DNA of 54,743 nt from Acidobacteriaceae bacterium (GTDB taxonomy: Bacteria; Acidobacteriota; Terriglobia; Terriglobales; Acidobacteriaceae), in NCBI GenBank assembly GCA_025357215.1, contig JANXPR010000473.1, forward strand, positions 1 to 54,743. The letters run 5' to 3'. Both the position numbers and the translations under genes were made by a program. Below the pieces are notes generated by a model, which was given only the letters and a program-made list of their open reading frames with translations, made no database searches and was not told the origin of the DNA. This document shows, piece after piece, positions 1-48,937 of the stretch. Every line of letters starts with the position of its first letter. Position 1 is the first letter of the stretch.

Positions 1-216
1 CGGATCGGCAACGTCTACCAAACTCTTTAAGTTATCATCCGCTGAAGAAAAGTGTCAACGCGTAGAGGGCGTTTTGCGCTCCAACAAATCGCTGCGCGGA
101 GATTATTTTGGCGCCCAGACTTTCTCTCCGGCAAAACGCTCGTTCGCCCGCTAAAAATCATCGCAGCACGACACTTTCGTCTTCCTTTCAGCGCGCGTCA
201 ACTTTATGATTTCCTC

Positions 217-16599: not shown

Positions 16600-16720
16600 T
16601 TTTCCGCCTTCAGTTCCCACCGGCTTGATGCCGCGGGAACGGGGATGTTGAAAGCATCCGCGGGCTCCAGTAGATTCACTGCGCGTTTCGCGCCCAATCC
16701 ACGGGGTTGTTGAAGCCCAC
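16600..16720 (-). ncRNA. NAD+-I riboswitch (nadA motif), two tandem domains
   Basis: The minus strand reads GGGCUUCAACAACCCCGUGGAUU-GGGCGCGAAACGCGC-AGUGAAUCUACUGGAGCCC, followed by GCUUUCAACAUCCCCGUUCCC...GGGAACUGAAGGCGGAAAAA-AUG. The box UUCAACA(A/U)CCCCGU is repeated, closing stems are present, and the second domain's 3' strand overlaps the SD (GAAGGCGGA). Confidence 0.8.
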
Positions 16721-16944: not shown

Positions 16945-19725
16945 TTATTCGTAGCGCAGGGCCACCAAGGGATCGACCTTGGTTGCGCGGCGCGTCGGCA
17001 CCAGGCAAGCCAACATGGCCACTAGAACCATGAGCACGAGCACAAACAACAAGGTGGTTGGATCGCCGGGCTTCACTCCGTAGAGAAGTGTCGAAAGCAC
17101 GCGAGTCACACCCAGCGAAAGACCAACGCCGAGAACCGCTCCCAACGCAGCCACCAGCACGGCTTGTCCCATGACCAGGCGAATCACGTTGCCGGCTTGT
17201 GCGCCTACGGCCATGCGAATGCCGATCTCACGCGTTCTGCGCGTGACTTCATAGGACAAAAGACCGTACAGACCCATGCAGGCCAATACCAGGGCAAGCA
17301 TTCCAAAGAAACTGGCGAGTTGCGCCACCATGCGATCTTGTGACAGTTGCCGTTCGATTTCGGCCTTCTGCGTACTGATGCGATACATGGCCAGGTTGGG
17401 GTCAATGCCGTTCACCATGTTGCGGATGCTCGGAACCAAGGATGAAGGGTCGGCGACAGTACGCAATTCAAAGAACGCTCCACCGTCCGCGGCCGGCATA
17501 AAGATGGTTGGCTTGATTTCCCGGCGCAAATTGCTGTACTTGGCATCGCTCACCACGCCTACGATCTCATAACCGGGAAATGCCGGATAAGGCCCGTCAG
17601 CGAGCGAGTCGCCAAACAAGTGACCCAGCGGGTTCTGCTTGGGAAAGTACTGGTGCGCAAACAATTCATTCACCACAGCGGCTGCCGGAACCTTTCTGGC
17701 CTCAAGAGGTGAGGAGTGAGACAAGGCTTCCGCAAAATCAGCGGGAGCAAGATCACGGCCAGCCCGCAACGGCATGCCCATGGTTGCAAAAAAGTTGGGA
17801 CCTATTTCCATCTGGTCGGCATCAACCTGGTCCTTGGAGTCAACCGGTGTGCCGGGACGATGGAACGAAGTCATGGAAGAACTTCCCGACAACATCGGAG
17901 CCCAGGAATACGATACTGATTTGACGCCGGGCAGAGCCGAAAATTTTTCCTGCAATCCGCTGTAGAGATGGCCGACCTGTGTTCCTTTGTAGCCTGCGAA
18001 CTTAGGATCCAATCCAAACAACAAAATATTGCTGGTATTGAACCCCGGATCAATGTTCTTGAGGTTGCTTAGAGTGCGCACCAGCAGCCCAGCGGTAGCC
18101 AGAACCAGCACCGCTAAGCCTACCTGGGTAGCCACCAGCAGGTTTCCCATGGTAAATCGACGACGGCGCGACCCTGTACCGCCGGACATGTCCGCGGTTT
18201 TGAGTGACGGCGTAAGGTCCACACGCAGTCCGCGATATGCGGGCGCCATCCCAAATATCAGCCCGGTGAGAATGGACACGCCGAACGTAAACGCCAGCAC
18301 GCGCCAGTCAAGATGCGGTGAGAATGTGGGAGGCTGTATACGTCCTGAGAAAAGGACCGCCATGAGGATGCGCGATCCCCACACGGCCAGCAGCAGTCCC
18401 AATGCGCCGCCCAAGACCGAGAGCGTCAGGCTCTCCACCAGAAGTTGCCCAAGCAGCCTGGTCCGCTTGGCCCCTAAAGCCATGCGGACGGCGATCTCGC
18501 GCTCGCGGCTGGCAGCCCGGGCCAGCAATAATCCGGCAACGTTGGCGCAGGCGATCAGCAGAATAACGCCAACGCAAAGCATCAGCACATACACGGGTTG
18601 CAAGAGCCGGTTGTAGCCTCCACGCAGTTCTTGTTGCGCCGGCATGAGCCGCAGATGAGGATCGTCTTCGGATTTGAAAAATGCTTTGTCCCCCTTCAGC
18701 ATGAGGTTGCGAAAGATCACATTTGCCGCTGTTTCCGCCTGCGACCCGGAAACTCCAGGCTTAAGGCGGCCGACAATGGTGTATCCAAAGAAGCCCATCC
18801 CCTTGGCGTCTCGCAGCCAGGTCATTCCCATGATTTTCTGTTGGGCGAGAGGTACCCACAGATCGAACTGGCTGGCCATGGCCAGGGATGTAAAGCGTGG
18901 CTCCGCGACTCCGATGATGGTGAATGGGCTGTTGTTCAGCCGGACGGTTTTACCCACCACGGAAGGTGAGCCGCCAAAGTCGCTCTGCCAGATCTTGTAG
19001 TTAAGGACCGCCACCGCCGGCGCTTCCGTCCGGTCATCGGATTCAGAAAGCAGGCGGCCCGCCGCAGGCATTACGCCGATCGTTTCAAAATACTGCCCGG
19101 AAACGAACTGGCCTTGAACGCGTTTGGCGGGACCATTGCCCGCCAAATCCATCTGTCCGAATCCGGTGGACGCACCAAGACTGGAAAAAACATTCGTCTG
19201 AGTCTGAATCTCTTTGACCAGCGGGTACGGCAGTGAACATCCCATCGGATGTTCCCGCAATCCTTCATTGCAGTCGCCAAAGTTCATGGCGCCTTCCGAT
19301 TCAGGATCGTGGCGAGCTTCCCATTTCAAAACCACCAGGCTTTGCGGGTCGCGCACCGGCAAGGAACGGAACACTACGGCGTCAATCACGCTGAAGATGG
19401 CGGTGTTCATCCCAATACCCAGGGCGAGGGTAAGCACCGCGACGGTGGTAAACGCGGGACTCTTTCGTAGCACGCGCACGGCGTAGCGAAAGTCTTGTGC
19501 CAGCTTTTCAAGGAACGCCGTCCAACGTACGCTATGAACAGCTTCGCGTGTCTGCTGAACTCCGCCAAAGGCAATCAAAGCCCGGCGACGCGCTTCTTCA
19601 GCCGGCATGCCCGCGGCAATGTTCTGCTGGATTTCTTTTTCCAGGTGGAACCGCAGTTCCGCATTCATGTCATCGTCCAGCTTGCTGTGTTTCAGTCCAT
19701 TGACCAGCCGCGTGAAAAAGTTCAT
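16945..19725 (-). CDS. ADOP-family duplicated permease (MacB/FtsX-like)
   Basis: N-terminus [55 protein letters not shown], two FtsX-type TM blocks, and a C-terminus [15 protein letters not shown]. Confidence 0.9.
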   Translation of the reverse strand: MNFFTRLVNGLKHSKLDDDMNAELRFHLEKEIQQNIAAGMPAEEARRRALIAFGGVQQTREAVHSVRWTAFLEKLAQDFRYAVRVLRKSPAFTTVAVLTLALGIGMNTAIFSVIDAVVFRSLPVRDPQSLVVLKWEARHDPESEGAMNFGDCNEGLREHPMGCSLPYPLVKEIQTQTNVFSSLGASTGFGQMDLAGNGPAKRVQGQFVSGQYFETIGVMPAAGRLLSESDDRTEAPAVAVLNYKIWQSDFGGSPSVVGKTVRLNNSPFTIIGVAEPRFTSLAMASQFDLWVPLAQQKIMGMTWLRDAKGMGFFGYTIVGRLKPGVSGSQAETAANVIFRNLMLKGDKAFFKSEDDPHLRLMPAQQELRGGYNRLLQPVYVLMLCVGVILLIACANVAGLLLARAASREREIAVRMALGAKRTRLLGQLLVESLTLSVLGGALGLLLAVWGSRILMAVLFSGRIQPPTFSPHLDWRVLAFTFGVSILTGLIFGMAPAYRGLRVDLTPSLKTADMSGGTGSRRRRFTMGNLLVATQVGLAVLVLATAGLLVRTLSNLKNIDPGFNTSNILLFGLDPKFAGYKGTQVGHLYSGLQEKFSALPGVKSVSYSWAPMLSGSSSMTSFHRPGTPVDSKDQVDADQMEIGPNFFATMGMPLRAGRDLAPADFAEALSHSSPLEARKVPAAAVVNELFAHQYFPKQNPLGHLFGDSLADGPYPAFPGYEIVGVVSDAKYSNLRREIKPTIFMPAADGGAFFELRTVADPSSLVPSIRNMVNGIDPNLAMYRISTQKAEIERQLSQDRMVAQLASFFGMLALVLACMGLYGLLSYEVTRRTREIGIRMAVGAQAGNVIRLVMGQAVLVAALGAVLGVGLSLGVTRVLSTLLYGVKPGDPTTLLFVLVLMVLVAMLACLVPTRRATKVDPLVALRYE

Positions 19726-35908: not shown

Positions 35909-35937
35909 TTGCCCAACCGTCCATCCTTATATATAGT
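35909..35937 (+). promoter_or_regulatory. Candidate sigma70 promoter TTGCCC-17-TATAGT
   Basis: The -35 box is at 35909-35914 and the -10 box at 35932-35937. The leader-peptide ATG lies only 9 nt downstream. Confidence 0.45.
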
Positions 35938-35946
35938 AATGACCTG

Positions 35947-36030
35947 ATGTTTACTCCTGTCGCCAACATGGCCATGTGCTGTCACACCATGGCTATGCGT
36001 GTGTTCACACAAAGGCAGACAGGTTCATAA
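35947..36030 (+). CDS. Met/Cys-rich leader peptide (27 aa) of a putative transcription attenuator
   Basis: MFTPVANMAMCCHTMAMRVFTQRQTGS* has 5 Met and 2 Cys in the first 17 residues. An intrinsic terminator follows 25 nt later. Confidence 0.55.
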   Translation: MFTPVANMAMCCHTMAMRVFTQRQTGS

Positions 36031-36055
36031 GCAAAGATTCATTCAGCAATTTTTG

Positions 36056-36092
36056 AACCCGCTGCCTCAGGGCAAGCGGGTTTTGTGCTTTT
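36056..36092 (+). terminator. Intrinsic terminator (attenuator) in the 5' leader of the ThrC-paralogue operon
   Basis: AACCCGCTGCC-TCAG-GGC(A)AGCGGGTT followed by TTGTGCTTTT. It lies about 95 nt upstream of ATG 36188. Confidence 0.65.
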
Positions 36093-36187
36093 GGGCCGGA
36101 AGAATCGGACTAAAGCAAGCTAGCAGACAGCGCAGCCGACGAGACATACCTGAGAGCAGCAGAAAACCGAGAGAAGATAAAAAGATC

Positions 36188-37522
36188 ATGAGCAATCAAG
36201 CCAGCACCAAGCCGAAACCGACGCAATTCTACGAACTGCGATGTCGCGAATGCCATACGCCGTGGGGCAACCAGCCGATTTCCTTCTGCCAGAAATGTTT
36301 CGCTCCGCTGGAAGTAGTGTACGACTGGGCGAGCATCAAGCCGCTAATCAGTCGCGACGAAATTGCCCGCCGCGGCACCACGCTGTGGCGCTACAAGGAA
36401 CTGCTTCCGCTTCCCGATGAATACGACGCTTCGCTTCCAGTGGGCTTCACGCCCCTGGTAAAAGCCGCGAACCTGGGTGACGCTCTTCCCGGCGGCAGCG
36501 CGCGCAACAAATCGTTGTACCTAAAAAATGACGCTTCCTGTTTCCCCACGTTGAGCTTCAAGGACCGCGTGGTGGCCGTGGCTCTGGCGCAGGCGCGCAA
36601 CTTCGGGTTTGAAGTCGTCAGTTGCTCTTCCACCGGCAACCTGGCGAACGCCGTTGCGGCGCAAGCCGCGCGCGGCGGATTCAAAGCCTGCGTGTTCATC
36701 CCGTCTGATCTGGAGTCCGCCAAAGTCTTGGGCACGGAGGTCTACGGCGCGCAGATCGTCCGCATTGCCGGCAATTATGACCACGTGAATCGCCTGTGCT
36801 CGCAGATCGCGGACAAACACCGCTGGGGATTTGTGAACGTAAACCTGCGGCCATACTATGCCGAAGGCTCGAAGACCGTAGGTTATGAAATTGCCGAACA
36901 ACTCGGCTGGCGCCTGCCGGACAACGTTGTCGTCCCCATGGCCGGCGGGTCTTTGATTACGAAAATCTACAAGGCGTTCAAAGAACTGGTAGAACTGGGC
37001 CTGGTGGAAGCCAAGAACGTCAAGTTCTTTGGCGCGCAAGCCACCGGCTGCAGCCCAATCAGTACTGCCGTTAAAGCCGGACGCAACGAGATCCAGCCGC
37101 AGAAGCCGGCAACAATTGCGCGCTCGCTGGCCATCGGCAACCCGGCGGACGGATTCTACGCGGCCCGCACTATCGCCAGCACCGGCGGCTGGGCGGAAGA
37201 CGCAAGCGATCCGGAAATTGTGGACGGCATCGCTCTGCTGGCCGAAACCGAAGGCATCTTCACGGAGACCGCGGGCGGCGTGACCGTGGCTTCCGCGCGC
37301 AAGCTCTACGCGCAAGGCCGCATCAAGCCGGAGGAAACTACCGTGCTCTGCATCACCGGCAACGGACTCAAGACCACCGACGCACTCGTCGGACGTTATG
37401 AAGCTTCCGAGCCCATCGCGCCAAAACTGGCGGCGCTTGAAGAATATCTTGAACAAAAACTGGTTGGCGTCTATGAAGCGTTTGGCGAAGCCCGCGCCGG
37501 AGCGCGTGGAGGTGTGCTGTGA
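36188..37522 (+). CDS. Threonine-synthase-family PLP enzyme with N-terminal zinc ribbon (paralogue; candidate sulfur-carrier-dependent homocysteine/cysteine synthase)
   Basis: CRECH...CQKC zinc ribbon and PLP-lysine context FPTLSFKDRVVAVAL, with ThrC-like sequence throughout. Start set at ATG 36188 because the track's upstream extension overlaps the leader and terminator. Confidence 0.85.
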   Translation: MSNQASTKPKPTQFYELRCRECHTPWGNQPISFCQKCFAPLEVVYDWASIKPLISRDEIARRGTTLWRYKELLPLPDEYDASLPVGFTPLVKAANLGDALPGGSARNKSLYLKNDASCFPTLSFKDRVVAVALAQARNFGFEVVSCSSTGNLANAVAAQAARGGFKACVFIPSDLESAKVLGTEVYGAQIVRIAGNYDHVNRLCSQIADKHRWGFVNVNLRPYYAEGSKTVGYEIAEQLGWRLPDNVVVPMAGGSLITKIYKAFKELVELGLVEAKNVKFFGAQATGCSPISTAVKAGRNEIQPQKPATIARSLAIGNPADGFYAARTIASTGGWAEDASDPEIVDGIALLAETEGIFTETAGGVTVASARKLYAQGRIKPEETTVLCITGNGLKTTDALVGRYEASEPIAPKLAALEEYLEQKLVGVYEAFGEARAGARGGVL

Positions 37523-37791
37523 GCGTTACCGTTTCAATTCCGTCGGCCTTCCGGCGGCACACAGAAGGCCTGGATCGCTTTGATGCATCCGCGGCGAACA
37601 TTAATGAACTCCTGGACGTTCTGGGCAATCGCTTCCCTGAACTCAAGCCGCACCTGCGCGATGAGCAAGGCAACGTCCGGCGCTTTCTGAATATTTACGT
37701 CAACGACGAAGACATCCGTTTTCTGGACAAGGACTACAAGTTCGCCGAAGGCGATGACGTAACGCTAGTGCCATCAATTGCAGGGGGGTAG
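37519..37791 (+). CDS. MoaD/ThiS-family ubiquitin-like sulfur-carrier protein ending in Gly-Gly
   Basis: 90 aa ending ...DDVTLVPSIAGG*. Its GTG start overlaps the upstream stop (GTGA), which suggests translational coupling. Confidence 0.85.
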   Translation: MSVTVSIPSAFRRHTEGLDRFDASAANINELLDVLGNRFPELKPHLRDEQGNVRRFLNIYVNDEDIRFLDKDYKFAEGDDVTLVPSIAGG

Positions 37792-38173: not shown

Positions 38174-38992
38174 CTACGCCAGCAACTCCAGGCGCTTCAC
38201 GTCGCTTCGGTTTTCGTCTGATTCCGCCAGTACTGGCGGAAGAAATTCACGCGCATCAATTCCTTGCTCGCCCGGCACGCGTCGCGCGACTTCGCCCACA
38301 ATCAAAATGGCCGGCGCGGCCACGCCACCGGCAAACGGCAAATCCAGTAAAGACATGAAGCATGTTTTCTGGTTGGCGCGCCCTGCGCTGGAGATCAGGA
38401 CCACGGGCGCGTTGCAATCCACGCCGGCTTCCATCAATTCGCGCGCTGTCTTGTTGTAGTCCGGTCCCGGCATGTAGACGGCAAAAGTTGTGCGCTGGGG
38501 ATCAAGCCCCGGGGTTCGGAGCTTGTCGCCACGGATGTTGTGTCCGGTAACGATCGCCAGCGCTGACGCCGAGTTGCGATCGGTGAGCGTGATGCCCGCC
38601 GTGGAAGCCGCCGCCGATGCCGCCGTAACGCCCGGCACGATTTCATAGGCTACGCAGGCCTTGCGCAGCGCGTCGAGTTCTTCACCCAGTCGTCCGAAAA
38701 CCGCAGGATCACCGGACTTGAGACGCACCACGGCCTTGCCCCGGCGCGCGTGCCAGATCATGAGAGCGTTAATCTGGGCTTGGTTGATTTGACCCTGACT
38801 GTTCGTCCGGTTGCCGCAACGTTTGCCAACGTTCACAATTCTGGCATCAGGCGCGGCTAGGGCGAGAATCTCCGGGGTCACCAGATCGTCATGCAAAACG
38901 ACCTGGGCCGCGCGTAACACTGCTGCGGCCCGCACCGTGAGCAAATCAGCCGAGCCTGGCCCGGCGCCTACGAGATGGACTTTCCCCGGCAC
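38174..38992 (-). CDS. cobA: Uroporphyrinogen-III C-methyltransferase (SUMT)
   Basis: VHLVGAGPGSADLLTVRAA...VVLHDDLV and VVRLKSGDPAVFGR. Confidence 0.92.
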   Translation of the reverse strand: MPGKVHLVGAGPGSADLLTVRAAAVLRAAQVVLHDDLVTPEILALAAPDARIVNVGKRCGNRTNSQGQINQAQINALMIWHARRGKAVVRLKSGDPAVFGRLGEELDALRKACVAYEIVPGVTAASAAASTAGITLTDRNSASALAIVTGHNIRGDKLRTPGLDPQRTTFAVYMPGPDYNKTARELMEAGVDCNAPVVLISSAGRANQKTCFMSLLDLPFAGGVAAPAILIVGEVARRVPGEQGIDAREFLPPVLAESDENRSDVKRLELLA

Positions 38993-39067: not shown

Positions 39068-39289
39068 TTAGGCGCTCTTCATTTTTCGGGGAACGCTCAC
39101 GCGGCCACCTTCATATGAAACGCTACGCGCTTTTGCGAGAAGTGCGCTCTTCGTCCAGCCACTGTTCCACGGCCGAAAGAATGCGGCCACCAGTTGGTCC
39201 ACACCGCCGATCATGTGCAGACCTTCGTGCTGGTGCTCTTTCAATGCTTCGCGAATCTTGGTTTCCAATGGGGTTGCTTTCAGACTCAT
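39068..39289 (-). CDS. Small hypothetical protein (73 aa) inside the siroheme/sulfite reductase operon
   Basis: Start set at the internal ATG 39289 (MSLKATPLETKIREALKEH...), with GAGAGGTG just upstream. No recognised domain. Confidence 0.5.
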   Translation of the reverse strand: MSLKATPLETKIREALKEHQHEGLHMIGGVDQLVAAFFRPWNSGWTKSALLAKARSVSYEGGRVSVPRKMKSA

Positions 39290-39326
39290 GTTCACCTCTC
39301 GTTTCGGTTCACGTACTTTAGTTGGT

Positions 39327-39908
39327 TCACTCACTAACAAAAGACTTCGGCCTGCATAGTGCAATCAGATGCAGCAACTGCTTGCGGCGTTCGCCAGCCG
39401 GGAGTACATGGCGGAGGGTTGTCCGTATGCGCCCCAGCCACTCGGCGAATGGGCCAAACTCCGGCCCGTACTGCCGTTCCAAATTTTTTCGCACTTGCTG
39501 GGCCAGCGCCGGACTTTGTCCGCCGGTGGAAATGGCGATCTGAAACTCACCGCGGCTAACCACGGATGGCGTGTAGTAATCGCAGTATGCGGGATCATCC
39601 ACGGCATTGCCCAAAGCGCCGGCTTGCTGCGCGTCTTGATAGACTGCCCGATTTACGGCTTCCAATTCTGTGGCGCCGATCACCAGGAAAAAGTGACGCG
39701 CCATGCCAGCCTGGTACTCGGTTTCTTTGTGCTTGAGTAGGCCTTGCGCTGCCCACTGGGCGATGCGCGGCGAGATGCGCGGCGAAACAACGGTCACGTC
39801 CGTGGCCGAGCGCAACACGCCTTCCAGCTTTTCTTCGCCGATGTTTCCGCCGCCGACAACCAATACCTTGCGGCCTTCGAGTTTGAGAAAAATCGGATAG
39901 AGGGCCAT
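39327..39908 (-). CDS. Precorrin-2 dehydrogenase / sirohydrochlorin ferrochelatase (CysG N-terminal-type, SirC-like)
   Basis: MALYPIFLKLEGRKVLVVGGGNIGEEKLEGVL, a Rossmann-type motif typical of the siroheme synthase N-domain. Confidence 0.88.
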   Translation of the reverse strand: MALYPIFLKLEGRKVLVVGGGNIGEEKLEGVLRSATDVTVVSPRISPRIAQWAAQGLLKHKETEYQAGMARHFFLVIGATELEAVNRAVYQDAQQAGALGNAVDDPAYCDYYTPSVVSRGEFQIAISTGGQSPALAQQVRKNLERQYGPEFGPFAEWLGRIRTTLRHVLPAGERRKQLLHLIALCRPKSFVSE

Positions 39909-39916
39909 GTTTGTTT

Positions 39917-41689
39917 TTATCCTTCCGCTCCGTGGGGTACGCGACCCGGAGCTGCATCGCGCGCCACGGGAGCAACCGTTTCGCCCGCGAGGAACGTCCG
40001 AAGCTCCGCGTCCGAATGCCGCAAAAAAAACTTGCGCAGATTTTCGTTGGCTTCGCGCCGGACAAGATATTCGCGCAGCAAGCGCTCAATGGCGTCTGGG
40101 GCTTCCGTGGCCACGCAGCGGTAACCGACCGGCCTGCCAAACGCCGCGTATTCACCGACGGCGCCGCCCAGGCAGAAGTAGTAGGCGTCCTGCATGCGGC
40201 CATCGACTTTTAACTTCTTGCCTTCCAGACCGATGTCCGCGATGCGATGCTGCCCGCAGCTGTTGGGGCAACCGGTTACGTTGATCTTGAGCGGCTGGTC
40301 GAATTCCGGGAGACGTTCTTCCAGTTCGTCCACGAGCCAGCGCGTGTAGGACTTGGTTTCCGTGATGGCCAGCTTGCAGAACTCCGTTCCGGTGCAAGCC
40401 ACCGCGCCGCGCCAGAACGGCGAAGCTGTAACGTGAAGTCCGGCGTTTTCCAGGCCCTGAACCACGGCTTGCGTTCTTGCCTGAGGCACGTTCACGATCA
40501 CCAGGTTCTGCGCGATGGTAGCGCGCAGGTCGCCGGAACCGTATTGCTCGGCGAGATCGGCGGCGGCACGCAGTTGCTCCGGCGAGATGCGACCGCGCAA
40601 CACAGCAGCGCCAACGTAAAAAAGCCCCGGCAGTTTTTGCGGATGGACGCCGGCATGATCGCGAAATACATCTGCCGGAATTTCTTCCGGCACGCCCGGC
40701 GCGAGTTTGAATCCCAGCCGGCGCTCAACTTCGGCGAGAAAGCTTTCCGCCGTCCAGCCGTGTTGCAGGAAAAGAAATTTCAGACGGGCGCGTTCGCGAT
40801 TTTGGCGCAATGGCTCCGCGTTGCGAAAAATCTCGCTGATGGCTTTGGTCACCGGCAACATCTGTTCCCAGGCGACAAAAGCGTTCAGGCGCACGGCGAG
40901 GTGCGGATCAGTGGAAAGGCCGCCGACGACGCGGACGGAAAAGCCGATTTCCTTTTTGCCACCCTCGTCCTCACCACGAACTTCGCGTACGGCCGGAGTG
41001 AAAGCCAGATCGTTGATTTCTGGATAAGAGCACCAGTCGCGGCAACCGCTCACGCTGATTTTGTACTTGCGCGGAAAGTTGTAATAATCCGCGCTGCCGA
41101 CCAACAGCTTTTCCATCTGGGCCACAAGTGGCGAGGCGTCACAGATTTCGTGCGCGTCCAAACCAGCCAGCGGGCAGCCAGTGATGTTGCGAGTAACATC
41201 ACCGCATGTGGCAAGCGAAGTTAGACCCACGGCATCCAGTTGCTCCAAAACGTCCGGCAGATCCTGCACGGTGATCCAATGGAGCTGAATGTTCTGACGC
41301 ACCGTGATGTCCGCGGAACCGCGCGCGTATTTTTCTGACAATTCGGCGATCGTACGCAACTGGCGGGCACTGACGATCCCGTTACCTAGACGTATGCGCA
41401 GCATGAGGAAAGGCAGGGCTTTGCCTTCACCGTTGGCACCGCCGAGAACACCAGCGCCATCACCTTGCGTGTACACGCCCCACCAGCGGAAGTACGTCTT
41501 GATCCAGGCTTCAGGAACTTCGGTGAAGCCTCCGCGCGCAAAGCTCCGGATTTCTTCCAGACACTCCCAGGGATTTTTTTCGCGCTTGAGCCGCTCGGCC
41601 TTCTGCGCCTTGCTTTCCTTCACTACAGTACCGGGTGTGCCGATGGCCTGTGTGACCGTTGCTTGTGATCCGTTTATTTCCAAACCCAT
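39917..41689 (-). CDS. sir: Assimilatory sulfite reductase (ferredoxin-type nitrite/sulfite reductase, siroheme/4Fe-4S)
   Basis: Cluster-binding motifs CTGTEFCKLA and TGCPNSCGQH, with duplicated NIR_SIR-type sequence. Start set at ATG 41689 because the track's TTG 41728 lies in the terminator U-tract. Confidence 0.9.
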   Translation of the reverse strand: MGLEINGSQATVTQAIGTPGTVVKESKAQKAERLKREKNPWECLEEIRSFARGGFTEVPEAWIKTYFRWWGVYTQGDGAGVLGGANGEGKALPFLMLRIRLGNGIVSARQLRTIAELSEKYARGSADITVRQNIQLHWITVQDLPDVLEQLDAVGLTSLATCGDVTRNITGCPLAGLDAHEICDASPLVAQMEKLLVGSADYYNFPRKYKISVSGCRDWCSYPEINDLAFTPAVREVRGEDEGGKKEIGFSVRVVGGLSTDPHLAVRLNAFVAWEQMLPVTKAISEIFRNAEPLRQNRERARLKFLFLQHGWTAESFLAEVERRLGFKLAPGVPEEIPADVFRDHAGVHPQKLPGLFYVGAAVLRGRISPEQLRAAADLAEQYGSGDLRATIAQNLVIVNVPQARTQAVVQGLENAGLHVTASPFWRGAVACTGTEFCKLAITETKSYTRWLVDELEERLPEFDQPLKINVTGCPNSCGQHRIADIGLEGKKLKVDGRMQDAYYFCLGGAVGEYAAFGRPVGYRCVATEAPDAIERLLREYLVRREANENLRKFFLRHSDAELRTFLAGETVAPVARDAAPGRVPHGAEG

Positions 41690-41724
41690 GGTTCCCACTT
41701 TCTCGAACGCTTGCCTGGTTTCTC

Positions 41725-41770
41725 CCAAAAAAGCAAAAGGCCCATCACCTTGTCTGGCGATGGGCCCTTC
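41725..41770 (-). terminator. Intrinsic terminator (attenuator) in the 5' leader of the sulfite reductase operon
   Basis: The minus strand reads GGGCCCATC-gccagacaaggt-GATGGGCC followed by TTTTGCTTTTTTGGG, about 35 nt upstream of ATG 41689. Confidence 0.65.
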
Positions 41771-41791
41771 CTAAAGTTGAATAATGGCTTT

Positions 41792-41872
41792 TTAGGTAGC
41801 GGCTTCATTGGCCAGAGACACGAGTGTCGCCTTACAGCAACACATACACATGTCCTGGCAAAGAATCCGCAT
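41792..41872 (-). CDS. Cys-rich leader peptide (26 aa) of a putative attenuator
   Basis: MRILCQDMCMCCCKATLVSLANEAAT* has 5 Cys and 3 Met in the first 13 residues. It lies between a promoter-like element and the terminator. Confidence 0.55.
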   Translation of the reverse strand: MRILCQDMCMCCCKATLVSLANEAAT

Positions 41873-41878
41873 GAATCC

Positions 41879-41906
41879 AAGCTAACCGCGAACGAAAAAG
41901 TGTCAA
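41879..41906 (-). promoter_or_regulatory. Candidate sigma70 promoter TTGACA-16-TAGCTT
   Basis: On the minus strand, TTGACA is at 41906-41901 and TAGCTT at 41884-41879. The leader ATG lies 6 nt downstream of the -10 box. Confidence 0.4.
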
Positions 41907-41957
41907 GGCGGAACTTGCCCGGCAACACTTACATTCACTTGCTTTGGCGAATATTCA

Positions 41958-43169
41958 TTAATGAGTTTTTGCGACTCCCACGCCACTTGTTGCATCGCCA
42001 GATCGGGTTGTTTGCGGCGATGCGCTGTTCCTGGTTTTGATTACCGCTTGTATCGGCTCAAGGAACCGGCTGTATTTAGCCAAGGTGACTTGATCGTTGG
42101 AAGCGAGTGCGGCTTGCACGGCTTTTTGCGTTGCCGGACTGACAATTTCAAGCCTTCCAACAAAAACGCGAACCGTCTGCGCCGGAGATGGCGCGATCGT
42201 CAGAGGCAGAATGCTGTCCACGAAGGATGGCGGCACAATGTAAAACAAGCGGGAGCCTTCTTCAAACCACGTGCTGCGCCAAGTCTCAAGCATGGCATGC
42301 GCTTCGTCAGGATAAAGGCCGTTTTCAACCAGGATACTCTCCAGGTCGGCATAGAGCGATTCGACGGAGGAAGTCAGTTCTGGAAAATCCAGCAGGGTGG
42401 TCTCCTGAAGCGGACGTGACAGGCGATAGCCAACTTTATCTCCACGGCGCTCGAACAGGATGGCTGCCGGAATCTCTGCCTTGATCAATGGTTTGACCAA
42501 CAACCTGCCCTGAGGATCGATCTGGGCCGCGACCGGAACCCGCATCGCGGACACTCCACGATAGAAGAGGAATTTCTCATGCTGGTCACCCTTGGAACTG
42601 TTCACGCGGAGCGGCGTAGCTGAAGTTGCGCGGGCGGCATAGTAGTGATTATCACTGTCGCTGGTTTCGCGCAGGAAAGTGGCGGGGCCGGGCTCCAGGG
42701 AAACAGATTTCCATGCAAGAGTGGCGTTGCCCGTTCCAGAAAGCGTTCCGCCAGTCCATGCGGTATTCGGAGTAACGCGGGCGTGCGGGTACCATTCCGT
42801 GAAGAGTCCGTTGGCAAACGCCACTTGCACGGATACCGTCATGCTTCGCGGCGAGTAGAAATAAAGGACCGGCGTTTCCATCCGTACCGTGCCCCGTAAA
42901 CTTACCTTGAACCCTTCGGTCCGAAAATGTTCAACGAACCCAGGCAGATTCGGTCCGCTGAGCGGCGACCACTCAACGGCCAACCCGTCAACGCCGGCGA
43001 CGGAAGTAAACGTACCCCATTCGTGGACCGTGAGTGCGGGATCAACTATCCGCGATTGGGCGTTCCCACACTGTGCCAGCAGCCCCGAGAGGATGATCAC
43101 CAGCGTCACGAAACGTAATACGAAACGAAATGAAAAATGAAGAAGGTGATTGTGCTGGGAAGTGTTCAT
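41958..43169 (-). CDS. Hypothetical secreted protein
   Basis: Start set at MNTSQHNHLLHFSFRFVLRFVTLVIILSGLLAQCGNAQS (signal peptide). No recognised domain. Confidence 0.6.
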   Translation of the reverse strand: MNTSQHNHLLHFSFRFVLRFVTLVIILSGLLAQCGNAQSRIVDPALTVHEWGTFTSVAGVDGLAVEWSPLSGPNLPGFVEHFRTEGFKVSLRGTVRMETPVLYFYSPRSMTVSVQVAFANGLFTEWYPHARVTPNTAWTGGTLSGTGNATLAWKSVSLEPGPATFLRETSDSDNHYYAARATSATPLRVNSSKGDQHEKFLFYRGVSAMRVPVAAQIDPQGRLLVKPLIKAEIPAAILFERRGDKVGYRLSRPLQETTLLDFPELTSSVESLYADLESILVENGLYPDEAHAMLETWRSTWFEEGSRLFYIVPPSFVDSILPLTIAPSPAQTVRVFVGRLEIVSPATQKAVQAALASNDQVTLAKYSRFLEPIQAVIKTRNSASPQTTRSGDATSGVGVAKTH

Positions 43170-43455: not shown

Positions 43456-43484
43456 TTGACTCCATCGCACAGCAAAGCTATAGT
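43456..43484 (+). promoter_or_regulatory. Candidate sigma70 promoter TTGACT-17-TATAGT
   Basis: The -35 box is at 43456-43461 and the -10 box at 43479-43484. The leader ATG lies 9 nt downstream. Confidence 0.5.
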
Positions 43485-43493
43485 TCAGGCTAG

Positions 43494-43595
43494 ATGCACC
43501 GGAATCAGAACATCGCGATGGCCAAGACATGCATGTGCACAACAGGCACAGGCACAACTACATCCATGCGATTTTCTGGCGAGCCGGTGAGATAA
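43494..43595 (+). CDS. Thr-rich (plus Met/Cys) leader peptide (33 aa) of the thr operon attenuator
   Basis: MHRNQNIAMAKTCMCTTGTGTTTSMRFSGEPVR* has 7 Thr within 12 residues, plus a CMC motif. Confidence 0.6.
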   Translation: MHRNQNIAMAKTCMCTTGTGTTTSMRFSGEPVR

Positions 43596-43623
43596 GAACT
43601 AAGCAGCAATCATAAAGTTCCTT

Positions 43624-43663
43624 AACCCACTCGCCCAATCAAGCGAGTGGGTTTTTCGCTTTT
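43624..43663 (+). terminator. Intrinsic terminator (attenuator) upstream of thrB
   Basis: AACCCACTCGC-ccaatcaa-GCGAGTGGGTT followed by TTTCGCTTTT. The track ORF start at 43647 falls inside it. Confidence 0.7.
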
Positions 43664-47583: not shown

Positions 47584-48937
47584 AATCTCAGCCGAGCCCA
47601 AAGCGGTGGCGGTCACGCCGGAGAGCGGCAAGCAGGTGCGCGTGGGCATCGTCGGCTACGGAACGGTGGGCCGCGCTACAGCGGAAATTCTTGCGGGCAA
47701 CGCCGCTGACATTCGCCGCCGCATGGACGGAGTCTCAGTGGTCGTCACGCGCATCAGCCGCAAAACGCCGCGCGGATCGGAGACCGGACCGAACGGTGTT
47801 GCGGTCGTCGCCGACTGGCGGCAAGTAGTCACGGCGGATGACGTGGACATCGTCGTCGAAGCGGTCGGCGGGACAACGACTGCGTATGAAGTTGTCCGCG
47901 CCGCGCTGGAACATGGCAAGGCCGTGGTGACCGCCAACAAAGCTCTCATCGCTAAGCATGGCGAAGAACTGTTTGCGCTGGCCCGCGAACGCAACCTGCC
48001 CATCGGCATTGAAGCCAGCGTGGCCGGCGGCGTGCCGGTGATCCGCGCAATTTCTGAAGCGCTGGCCGCGGACCGCGTTACCGCGATCTACGGCATCGTG
48101 AACGGAACGTGCAATTACATCCTGACGCAGATGGAACTGCGTGGCCTGGATTTTGCCGCGGCGCTGGAACAAGCCCAAGCCGCCGGATTTGCCGAAGCCG
48201 AAGCCAGCCTGGATATTGACGGCTGGGACTCACGCGATAAGATCGCGATCCTGGCGCGCATCGCTTTCGGGCTGAGCGTGAATCCGCAGGACATTCCTGT
48301 TTCTGGTATCCGGCAGATTTCCGCCACGGACTTGCACTATGCACACCGGATGAATTCAACCATTCGTCTGGTGGCGTCAGCTGAGTTGACGAAAGACGGA
48401 GTCCACATAGCCGTGCAGCCGTGGCTGGAGCCGCGCGATTCCATGCTGGCTAAAGTTGACGGCGCCAACAATGCAATCTTCATCGCCGGCGAGCGCGTTG
48501 GCACACAAATGCTTTATGGACGTGGCGCCGGCGGCGACGCCACCGGCACGGCTGTACTCTCAGACGTGTTGCAGATCGCGCAACAGATTGCCAAAGGGCA
48601 GTCGGCTCCCTCTGCGATTGCCGGATTCCATAACGCCAAGCCGTTGCGCTTTTCTCCGCGCCAGCAGCCGATGTGCTGGTTCCTGCGGCTCGCCGTGAAT
48701 GACGCTCCGGGAATTCTGGCGAAAACGGCGCAGGCCATTGCGGATGAGGGCATCAACATTGATTCGGTGATCCAGGAACCCAACATGCGCAAAGACCGCT
48801 TGTCGTTCGTGATCACTCTGGAACCAACGGACCAAGCCCGCGTGCTGCGCGCCGTCAAGAATATCGATGGCTTTGAATTTATGCGCGAACCTGTGCTGCT
48901 GCTGCCGATGATTTCATCGGTGGAAGAGCATGTTTAG
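47570..48937 (+). CDS. hom: Homoserine dehydrogenase
   Basis: VGIVGYGTVGRATAEIL, NGTCNYILTQM, and a C-terminal ACT domain. Confidence 0.92.
   Translation: MRGTEISAEPKAVAVTPESGKQVRVGIVGYGTVGRATAEILAGNAADIRRRMDGVSVVVTRISRKTPRGSETGPNGVAVVADWRQVVTADDVDIVVEAVGGTTTAYEVVRAALEHGKAVVTANKALIAKHGEELFALARERNLPIGIEASVAGGVPVIRAISEALAADRVTAIYGIVNGTCNYILTQMELRGLDFAAALEQAQAAGFAEAEASLDIDGWDSRDKIAILARIAFGLSVNPQDIPVSGIRQISATDLHYAHRMNSTIRLVASAELTKDGVHIAVQPWLEPRDSMLAKVDGANNAIFIAGERVGTQMLYGRGAGGDATGTAVLSDVLQIAQQIAKGQSAPSAIAGFHNAKPLRFSPRQQPMCWFLRLAVNDAPGILAKTAQAIADEGINIDSVIQEPNMRKDRLSFVITLEPTDQARVLRAVKNIDGFEFMREPVLLLPMISSVEEHV

Follow-up and report, generated by a model that had tools for sequence, protein, structure and literature searches.

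A putative cysteine-sensing leader-peptide attenuator upstream of the sulfite reductase operon of an Acidobacteriaceae bacterium

The sir locus and its leader region

The stretch of Acidobacteriaceae DNA analysed here, contig JANXPR010000473.1 (54,743 nucleotides, nt; hereafter the window), carries on its minus strand the operon sir–sirC–orf–cobA, headed by a gene for a NirA-family sulfite/nitrite reductase. The operon is preceded by a short leader region in which a promoter-like element, a small open reading frame (ORF) rich in cysteine (Cys) codons and a GC-rich hairpin with a U-tract follow each other closely. Comparison with related loci makes it likely that this sir leader is a ribosome-mediated transcription attenuator of the trp type, which would sense charged tRNA-Cys and control sir–sirC–orf–cobA. 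The elements of the leader are as follows.

41901–41906, minus strand: −35 box, TTGACA, read in the window; TTGNNN occupies this position in 44 of 66 related leaders
41879–41884, minus strand: −10 box, TAGCTT, separated by 16 nt from the −35 box and by 6 nt from the ATG at 41872–41870
41792–41872, minus strand: leader ORF, MRILCQDMCMCCCKATLVSLANEAAT and stop, 26 codons from ATG 41872–41870 to UAA 41794–41792
41858–41860, minus strand: extra Cys5 codon, read in the window; its position is nearly invariant in the clade alignment
41834–41848, minus strand: putative regulatory codons UGU AUG UGU UGC UGU (Cys9, Met10 and Cys11–Cys13), nearly invariant in the clade alignment
41727–41770, minus strand: predicted intrinsic terminator, stem 41770–41756 paired with 41749–41735, loop AGACAA, U-tract UUUUGCUUUUUU

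Five Cys codons (5, 9, 11, 12 and 13) and three methionine (Met) codons fall within the first 13 codons of MRILCQDMCMCCCKATLVSLANEAAT, and Cys11–Cys13 are consecutive (UGU UGC UGU). The terminator hairpin, GAAGGGCCCATCGCC-AGACAA-GGTGATGGGCCTTTT (41770–41735), is followed by GCTTTTTT down to 41727, also written GAAGGGCCCAUCGCC-AGACAA-GGUGAUGGGCCUUUU and GCUUUUUU; it comprises 15 pairs with a folding energy of −26.6 kcal/mol and is the top terminator-like site between 36 and 46 kb. A preliminary description of this region had reported the TTGACA-16-TAGCTT element 6 nt ahead of ATG 41872, the counts of Cys and Met codons with three consecutive Cys codons, and a GC-rich hairpin with a U-rich tail before sir; all of these were read again on the minus strand, with the counts correct and with the U-tract ending 37 nt from the sir ATG at 41689.

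The operon itself consists of four genes.

39917–41689, minus strand: sir, NirA-family ferredoxin-type sulfite/nitrite reductase (Pfam NIR_SIR and NIR_SIR_ferr; NCBIfam NirA family)
39327–39908, minus strand: sirC-like precorrin-2 dehydrogenase (siroheme synthase N-terminal domain), after sir in 75 of 80 related loci
39068–39364, minus strand: small ORF, 98 amino acids (aa) from a TTG start that overlaps sirC, or 74 aa from ATG 39292
38174–38992, minus strand: cobA, uroporphyrinogen-III C-methyltransferase, after sir in 71 of 80 related loci

The related loci form a sample of 80 genomic loci encoding Sir proteins that are 59–82% identical, the closest, at up to 82%, belonging to genome bins of Terriglobia and of 'Candidatus Angelobacter'; 77 of them extend far enough upstream for a leader search. 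The small ORF has no Pfam or NCBIfam match, and only 14 of the 80 loci have a homologue downstream of sir. Upstream of the leader, a 421-aa gene co-oriented with sir ends at 41958, 188 nt ahead of the hairpin, and has a counterpart in a single locus of the 80. Since this gene is not kept while sirC and cobA are, the leader element belongs to the sir operon. Its orientation and proximity would be compatible with a coincidental arrangement, in which a Cys-rich ORF merely happens to lie beside the 3' terminator of the 421-aa gene; the leader and its terminator are nevertheless found in most loci, and the promoter sits between the 421-aa gene and the leader ORF, so such a coincidence is barely conceivable. 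The hairpin as terminator of the 421-aa gene is ruled out by the presence of that gene in just one locus.

The best NCBIfam scores of the sir protein are to the ferredoxin–nitrite reductase and NirA-family models, all below their cut-offs, and the plant-type sir model scores much lower. The Cys leader is the best argument that sir reduces sulfite, which it suggests; for annotation, it favours sulfite over nitrite as the substrate of this NirA-family enzyme, and it also corrects the start codon of sir. The start of the longest ORF, TTG 41728–41726, sits within the U-tract. An in-frame stop codon separates the U-tract from the sir start in eight of the 15 nearest relatives examined, and the closest relative has the sir ATG and its context in common with the window (GAAAGTGGGA.CCATGGG). 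On these grounds the TTG start is most probably an artefact, as had been proposed in the preliminary description, and the true start is most probably ATG 41689. Short regulatory ORFs escape gene callers and can cause such start-codon errors downstream. At two of the related loci, L013 (~3992) and L016 (~3989), nothing separates the sir ATG from the terminator U-tract (UUUUUCUUUUUAUG), and this ATG has no Shine–Dalgarno sequence.

Conservation of the leader among relatives of Sir

The cysteine codons are the most widespread feature of the leader. An ATG-led ORF of 8–60 codons with at least three Cys in six codons was found at most 300 nt upstream of sir in 65 of the 77 loci (84%), compared with 1.6% of 4184 other 300-nt pieces and with two of the 77 loci when the opposite strand was read; under a stricter cut of at least four Cys, the proportions are 62% for the sir loci and 0.1% for the controls. 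Judged against these controls, the occurrence of a Cys-run ORF before sir is far beyond chance. At non-acidobacterial sir loci labelled Methylomirabilota or Rokubacteria, no Cys leader lies upstream of sir, and a small ORF with a CxxC...CxxC pattern is found there; at L018, L020 and L036, labelled Methylomirabilota or unclassified bacterium, this ORF is conserved, zinc-ribbon-like and ~70 aa long. The window holds just one Cys-run leader of the sir type in its 54.7 kb. A further ORF with four consecutive Cys codons, MALNLCANLCCCCR (48867–48911, plus strand), was judged to be a chance occurrence because it lies out of frame inside the 3' end of hom, within the CTG repeats that encode a leucine run (CTGCTGCTGCTG), and faces a convergent gene.

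The one peptide feature that all clades have in common is the Cys run, the remaining sequence differing between them, as illustrated by M..I.Q.MCMCCC...VSLA.E.AT, ...CMCACCCCACVCSGAGKLLT, M...CCRCC..LRA.R and MESCTRTKNCLPCACCCQSHGW...; peptide length varies from 12 to 33 residues, and Cys makes up 22.9% of the residues in the 66 leaders. These codons are also unusual in kind: UGU accounts for 225 of 332 leader Cys codons (68%), as opposed to 83 of 897 (9%) in sir itself at these loci, and ten genes of the window contain 15 UGU versus 42 UGC. A preference for the rarer, wobble-read codon would fit a stalling sensor, and constraints of RNA structure may contribute to it.

The promoter and the ORF are kept in a fixed relation to each other. 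The pattern TTGNNN-16..18-TANNNT-5..8 before an in-frame ATG was sought in the 66 leaders and at 18,021 control ATGs, and was found in 44 of the former and in 0.4% of the latter. Within the 44 fitting loci, the gap between the −10 box and the leader ATG is 6–7 nt in 42, and the −35 box reads TTGAC in 28; in some other leaders the gap is 9–12 nt. At sigma-70-type promoters transcription begins ~7 nt after the −10 hexamer. This spacing, together with the lack of a Shine–Dalgarno sequence ahead of the leader ATG in the window, would imply leaderless translation: the leader mRNA is most likely to be leaderless, with its AUG at, or a few bases from, the predicted 5' end.

At the other end of the leader, a GC-rich hairpin with a U-tract is found 52–85 nt past the stop codon of the leader ORF in nearly all related loci, and the stem shows compensatory changes within the clade of the window. 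The distance from the U-tract to sir, 37 nt in the window, ranges from 0 to 130 nt across loci. In most loci only tens of bases separate the terminator from the start of the match to Sir, a gap so short that it leaves no room for a separate sir promoter, and neither the length nor the sequence of this interval is conserved. These observations bear on an alternative in which the Cys leader acts mainly on translation, or through Rho-dependent termination, as demonstrated for the leaderless ORF Ms5788A of mycobacteria, and the hairpin is not a conditional terminator. Such a mode of action could draw on the minimum-free-energy fold of the window, which pairs some bases of the spacer with the 5' region of sir; on the other hand, almost every locus keeps a GC-rich stem with an immediate U-tract, the 3' half of the ORF is complementary to the 5' arm of the terminator and not to the ribosome-binding site of sir, and the interval from the terminator to the sir start is variable in both distance and sequence. 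A mainly translational or Rho-dependent effect is consequently considered unlikely.

Alternative RNA structures and proposed mechanism

The whole leader region folds well beyond its shuffles (z-score, z = −5.7), and three further elements can be defined within it.

41849–41859, minus strand: segment 1 (GCCAGGACAUG), 5' arm of the leader hairpin in minimum-free-energy folds, with a GCCAG motif in common with the 5' arm of the terminator
41811–41822, minus strand: segment 2 (CGUGUCUCUGGC), potential partner of segment 1 or of the 5' arm of the terminator
41753–41816, minus strand: predicted antiterminator, a long imperfect hairpin obtained in the masked fold

The duplex of segments 1 and 2, corresponding to a leader hairpin, reaches −36.9 kcal/mol in the window against a shuffle mean of −18.7 (z = −5.0), with a median z of −2.0 over 63 loci. 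For the antiterminator, the region covered by a stalled ribosome was masked and only the RNA made before the 3' arm of the terminator was folded, with shuffles as control. The resulting hairpin joins UCUGGC..AUG..GCC.GC to GC.GGC..CAU..GCCAGA and is capped by a helix between CCUAAA (41796–41791), which holds the stop codon of the ORF, and UUUAGG (41775–41770). In the window it amounts to −20.6 kcal/mol against −14.0 in the shuffles (z = −2.4) and sequesters 12 of the 15 bases of the terminator arm; over all loci, 43% of the antiterminator folds are at p ≤ 0.05, where 5% are expected. The same plan is seen in other clades with quite different sequences. From one main clade type to the other, segment 2 changes in step with the terminator 5' arm (interaction −3.7 kcal/mol, permutation p < 0.001), and the motif common to segment 1 and the terminator arm varies by clade (GCCAGA, UGCCAG, ACCCG or UCCAC), the complement of each being present in segment 2. 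In L012, the stop-codon helix CCUAAA/UUUAGG is replaced by CUUAAA/UUUAAG. A test for k-mers shared three ways was positive in the clade of the window and in several others, and negative in the Terracidiphilus-type clade.

The footprint of the ribosome was used to place a stalled ribosome on this map. In the model geometry, a ribosome whose A site is at the Cys13 codon extends approximately to codon 17, leaving segment 2 (codons 17–21) just free, while a ribosome on the stop codon would cover most of the 5' strand of the antiterminator. This geometry fits that of a classical attenuator, and the mutually exclusive antiterminator is moderately supported.

The pattern of substitutions in segment 2 also helps to decide what is being conserved. 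UCUCUGG is invariant in the 15 close sequences of the clade, with codons 19 and 20 (UCU and CUG) fixed even at their third positions, whereas the unpaired third position of codon 21 is fully variable. As paired third positions are fixed and unpaired ones free, the apparent conservation of VSLA reflects a constraint on the RNA. If the ORF instead encoded a functional Cys-rich micropeptide, either metal- or redox-binding or a precursor, with the hairpin as the own terminator of this small gene, its conservation would be expected, and VSLA.E.AT at the C-terminus does look conserved as peptide in the clade of the window. Beyond this clade, however, nothing but the Cys run is common to peptides of 12–33 residues that are otherwise wholly different, and the supposedly conserved residues are fixed at synonymous positions only where these are paired. 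Moreover, the 0–130 nt between the U-tract and sir leave no promoter room in most loci, and the element is always attached to sulfur-assimilation operons, all of which renders a micropeptide highly improbable.

The attenuator would operate as follows. Transcription would start at, or within 1 nt of, the leader AUG, and the ORF would be read as a leaderless mRNA. When cysteine is plentiful, the ribosome would pass the Cys codons and proceed to the UAA, covering the 3' half of the ORF and with it the 5' strand of the antiterminator and of the stop-codon helix. After release of the ribosome, segment 1 would re-pair with segment 2; the hairpin and U-tract would then form, and RNA polymerase would stop 37 nt before sir. 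When charged tRNA-Cys is scarce, the ribosome would stall on UGU-AUG-UGU-UGC-UGU and mask segment 1, leaving segment 2 and the stop-codon helix available to the terminator 5' arm (for instance UCUGGC to GCCAGA), so that the terminator would not form and the operon would be transcribed. From the sequences we infer where transcription starts, that the ORF is translated, and that stalling, termination and a cysteine response take place.

Several points weigh against this interpretation. The −10 hexamer of the window is weak, matching TATAAT at three of six positions, and a generic promoter scan of the window did not list the TTGACA-16-TAGCTT site, the promoter being called because it is conserved across loci and not because of its own score. 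No demonstration of leaderless translation in Acidobacteriota was found in the literature covered. Within the clade, covariation of the antiterminator over the 15 sequences is not above that of shuffles, the key helices being invariant, and the co-variation at clade level comes from few independent lineages. Taken alone, the pairing of segment 2 with the terminator arm does not reach significance in the window (p = 0.18; median z = −1.2), and it takes a fold of the complete antiterminator hairpin, with its stop-codon helix, to make it significant. At −20.6 kcal/mol the antiterminator is less stable than the terminator (−26.6 kcal/mol), so the model leans on co-transcriptional kinetics. Finally, the Terracidiphilus-type clade has no evident segment 1.

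A different reading of the same folds is that of a metabolite- or protein-binding RNA, a riboswitch or the target of a regulator, in which the reading frame would be incidental. The region as a whole folds well, as described above, and some nucleotide stretches are highly conserved (GUCUCUGGC, CGCCAGAG and CCUAA/UUAGG). These conserved nucleotides are, however, the ones that form the alternative helices of the attenuator; clades with otherwise unrelated nucleotide sequences have retained the frame, the ATG abutting the promoter and the Cys codon run, and no Rfam family matches the region. A binding RNA of this kind is therefore very unlikely. At the sequence level, the sir leader possesses the components of an attenuator, namely an ORF with cognate codons, a terminator between the ORF and sir, and a predicted antiterminator exclusive with it.

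The preliminary description had proposed attenuation of the sir operon by sensing of Cys-tRNA, and had suggested comparing related genomes for a run of Cys codons and predicting alternative RNA structures. The proposal gains support from both approaches: promoter, Cys run and terminator, together with their spacing, are all conserved upstream of sir across Terriglobia, and mutually exclusive leader-hairpin and antiterminator folds are predicted. With the leader conserved across relatives, sulfur assimilation is very probably switched on when charged Cys-tRNA is low.

Related leaders and comparison with known systems

Leaders of this type are not confined to sir. In a sample of 74 metagenomic contigs encoding close relatives of CysD (loci L081–L160), 32 carry an ORF with at least three Cys in six codons within 330 nt upstream of cysD, many of them with terminators, and none does so on the opposite strand; examples are L123 (4239–4331), L132 (251–343) and L136 (4219–4311). 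The leaders of sir can be aligned with those of cysD (UGUUGU..UGUUGCGCAU.CGUGU..UCUGG ... CCCACCGCCAGAG ... CGGUGGGUUUUUU), having in common the CCCACCGCCAGAG terminator arm and the UCUGG segment, and it follows that one leader family serves at least two operons. Three of the sir loci (L047, L067 and L072) contain two tandem Cys leaders on the minus strand, divergent from sir, which precede an outer-membrane protein of the Alginate_exp family and then cysD (for example MQKIMLKLACCCCR, then ...GCCCC...). In L070 (2635–2688) and L076, a Cys-run leader stands before a PF03601 membrane protein, the gene for which then precedes sir in L070, and in L029 (8064–8138) one stands before a gene resembling those of TonB-dependent receptors.

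Two other candidate leaders in the window share the design of the sir leader, as far as can be read from sequence. The first, at 43456–43663 on the plus strand, precedes thrB–ask–thrC–hom and consists of TTGACT-17-TATAGT, an ATG 9 nt further on at 43494, a leader ORF (43494–43595), MHRNQNIAMAKTCMCTTGTGTTTSMRFSGEPVR, with nine threonine (Thr) residues including the run TTGTGTTT, and a hairpin AACCCACUCGCC...GGCGAGUGGGUU with a U-tract at 43624–43663 (z = −5.6 for the region). The second, at 35909–36095 on the plus strand, is rich in Met and Cys: a promoter-like TTGCCC...TATAGT is followed by ATG 35947, a leader ORF (35947–36030), MFTPVANMAMCCHTMAMRVFTQRQTGS, with five Met and two Cys, and a hairpin with a U-tract at ~36057–36095 (z = −3.4 for the region). 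It precedes genes for a ThrC-like pyridoxal-phosphate enzyme (ATG 36188) and a ThiS/MoaD-like protein (37519–37791), and could be a methionine/cysteine-codon attenuator of a sulfur-carrier-dependent pathway.

A wider picture, which has about even chances of being correct, is that much of the control over sulfur assimilation in Terriglobia falls to a single family of duplicated, leaderless leader RNAs, each with a poly-Cys ORF and an intrinsic terminator. The family may comprise the leaders of sir, cysD(N), PF03601 transporters and outer-membrane uptake proteins, and may stand in place of a transcription factor of the CysB type. The leaderless design may extend to the neighbouring Thr and Met/Cys-rich leaders, and the one before the ThrC-like and ThiS-like sulfur-carrier pair may be a rare methionine-codon attenuator. 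If this picture holds, leaderless leader peptides would be a general strategy of amino-acid sensing in a phylum with almost no characterized regulation. Acidobacteriota are abundant in soil and little is known of their gene regulation, for which the sir leader provides a concrete candidate cis-regulatory mechanism in the sulfate assimilation of Terriglobia.

At the Rfam gathering score, nothing in the window matches at the leader, the only matches being two nadA riboswitches elsewhere; these lie in tandem at 16606–16717 on the minus strand (RF03013, 60.6 and 49.7 bits). Both this tandem arrangement and the nearest relatives of Sir point to Terriglobia (Acidobacteriota) as the origin of the DNA. 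With the threshold relaxed to E ≤ 10 over 41650–41960, only chance-level matches appear (E ≥ 1). The leader thus defines an uncatalogued RNA family, a candidate for resources of the Rfam type. A full-text literature search, within the literature covered, returned no description of such a leader for Acidobacteria or Acidobacteriota or for sulfite reductase. The sir leader would accordingly belong to a known type of switch that is, in that literature, unreported for this phylum or for a sulfite reductase operon; the preliminary description, which did not know the mechanism as a standard one for the pathway, needs correcting in that Cys-codon leaders have been described elsewhere, and also in that the mRNA is most likely leaderless.

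The classical enterobacterial leader-peptide attenuators are those of trpL, hisL, thrL, leuL and pheL. The sir leader resembles them in its four-segment logic, with a 1:2 leader hairpin, a 2:3 antiterminator and a 3:4 terminator, in the location of the regulatory codons in or just after segment 1, and in the presence of the stop codon in the 5' strand of the antiterminator. It differs from them in that it would sense cysteine and is predicted to be leaderless instead of led by a Shine–Dalgarno sequence; it has no homology to them and no Rfam match even at E ≤ 10.

Leaders with Cys codons have been predicted in other bacteria. In Actinobacteria, cys or cbs operons are similarly preceded by short ORFs with runs of Cys codons (Seliverstov et al., 2005, PMC1262725). 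The authors detected no terminators and suggested Rho-dependent termination, whereas the terminator is the best-conserved part of the sir leader. In Rhodobacterales, cysS is preceded by the uORFC-8-2 motif (Brewer et al., 2021, PMC8632094), in which tandem Cys codons inside a stem are followed by a terminator stem and a U run, with read-through proposed when Cys-tRNA is scarce. That motif differs in controlling a tRNA synthetase gene, in having two Cys codons at positions 14–15, in belonging to alpha-proteobacteria and in not being described as leaderless, and it gave no match in the Rfam scan of the window.

The leaderless polycysteine short ORFs of mycobacteria (a Cys 'ribulon'), among them Ms5788A and Rv2334A, have been shown experimentally to act on translation (Canestrari et al., 2020, Mol Microbiol 114:93; bioRxiv 10.1101/834739). 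They resemble the sir leader in the leaderless ATG at the 5' end (predicted in the present case), in the consecutive Cys codons, in the position upstream of cysteine or sulfur operons, in the sharing of the device by several operons per genome and in the read-out of stalling, likewise predicted here, by alternative RNA pairing. At least two consecutive Cys codons at several loci characterize the mycobacterial ORFs, and here there are three in a row, with further leaders in relatives. The mycobacterial ORFs belong to another phylum and have no sequence similarity to the sir leader. The mycobacterial case that has been dissected works as a translational attenuator, freeing a ribosome-binding site, and involves no intrinsic terminator; the sir leader, in contrast, has a conserved hairpin and U-tract, and sequestration of a ribosome-binding site was not found, the conserved partner of the 3' half of its ORF being the terminator arm. 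Furthermore, each mycobacterial locus is said to have evolved its leader independently, whereas those of sir and cysD in acidobacteria can be aligned with one another. The sir leader would therefore represent a case of convergence, in which the polycysteine leaderless ORF described in mycobacteria reappears, as an idea, in a phylum unrelated to them, this time joined to a classical intrinsic terminator.

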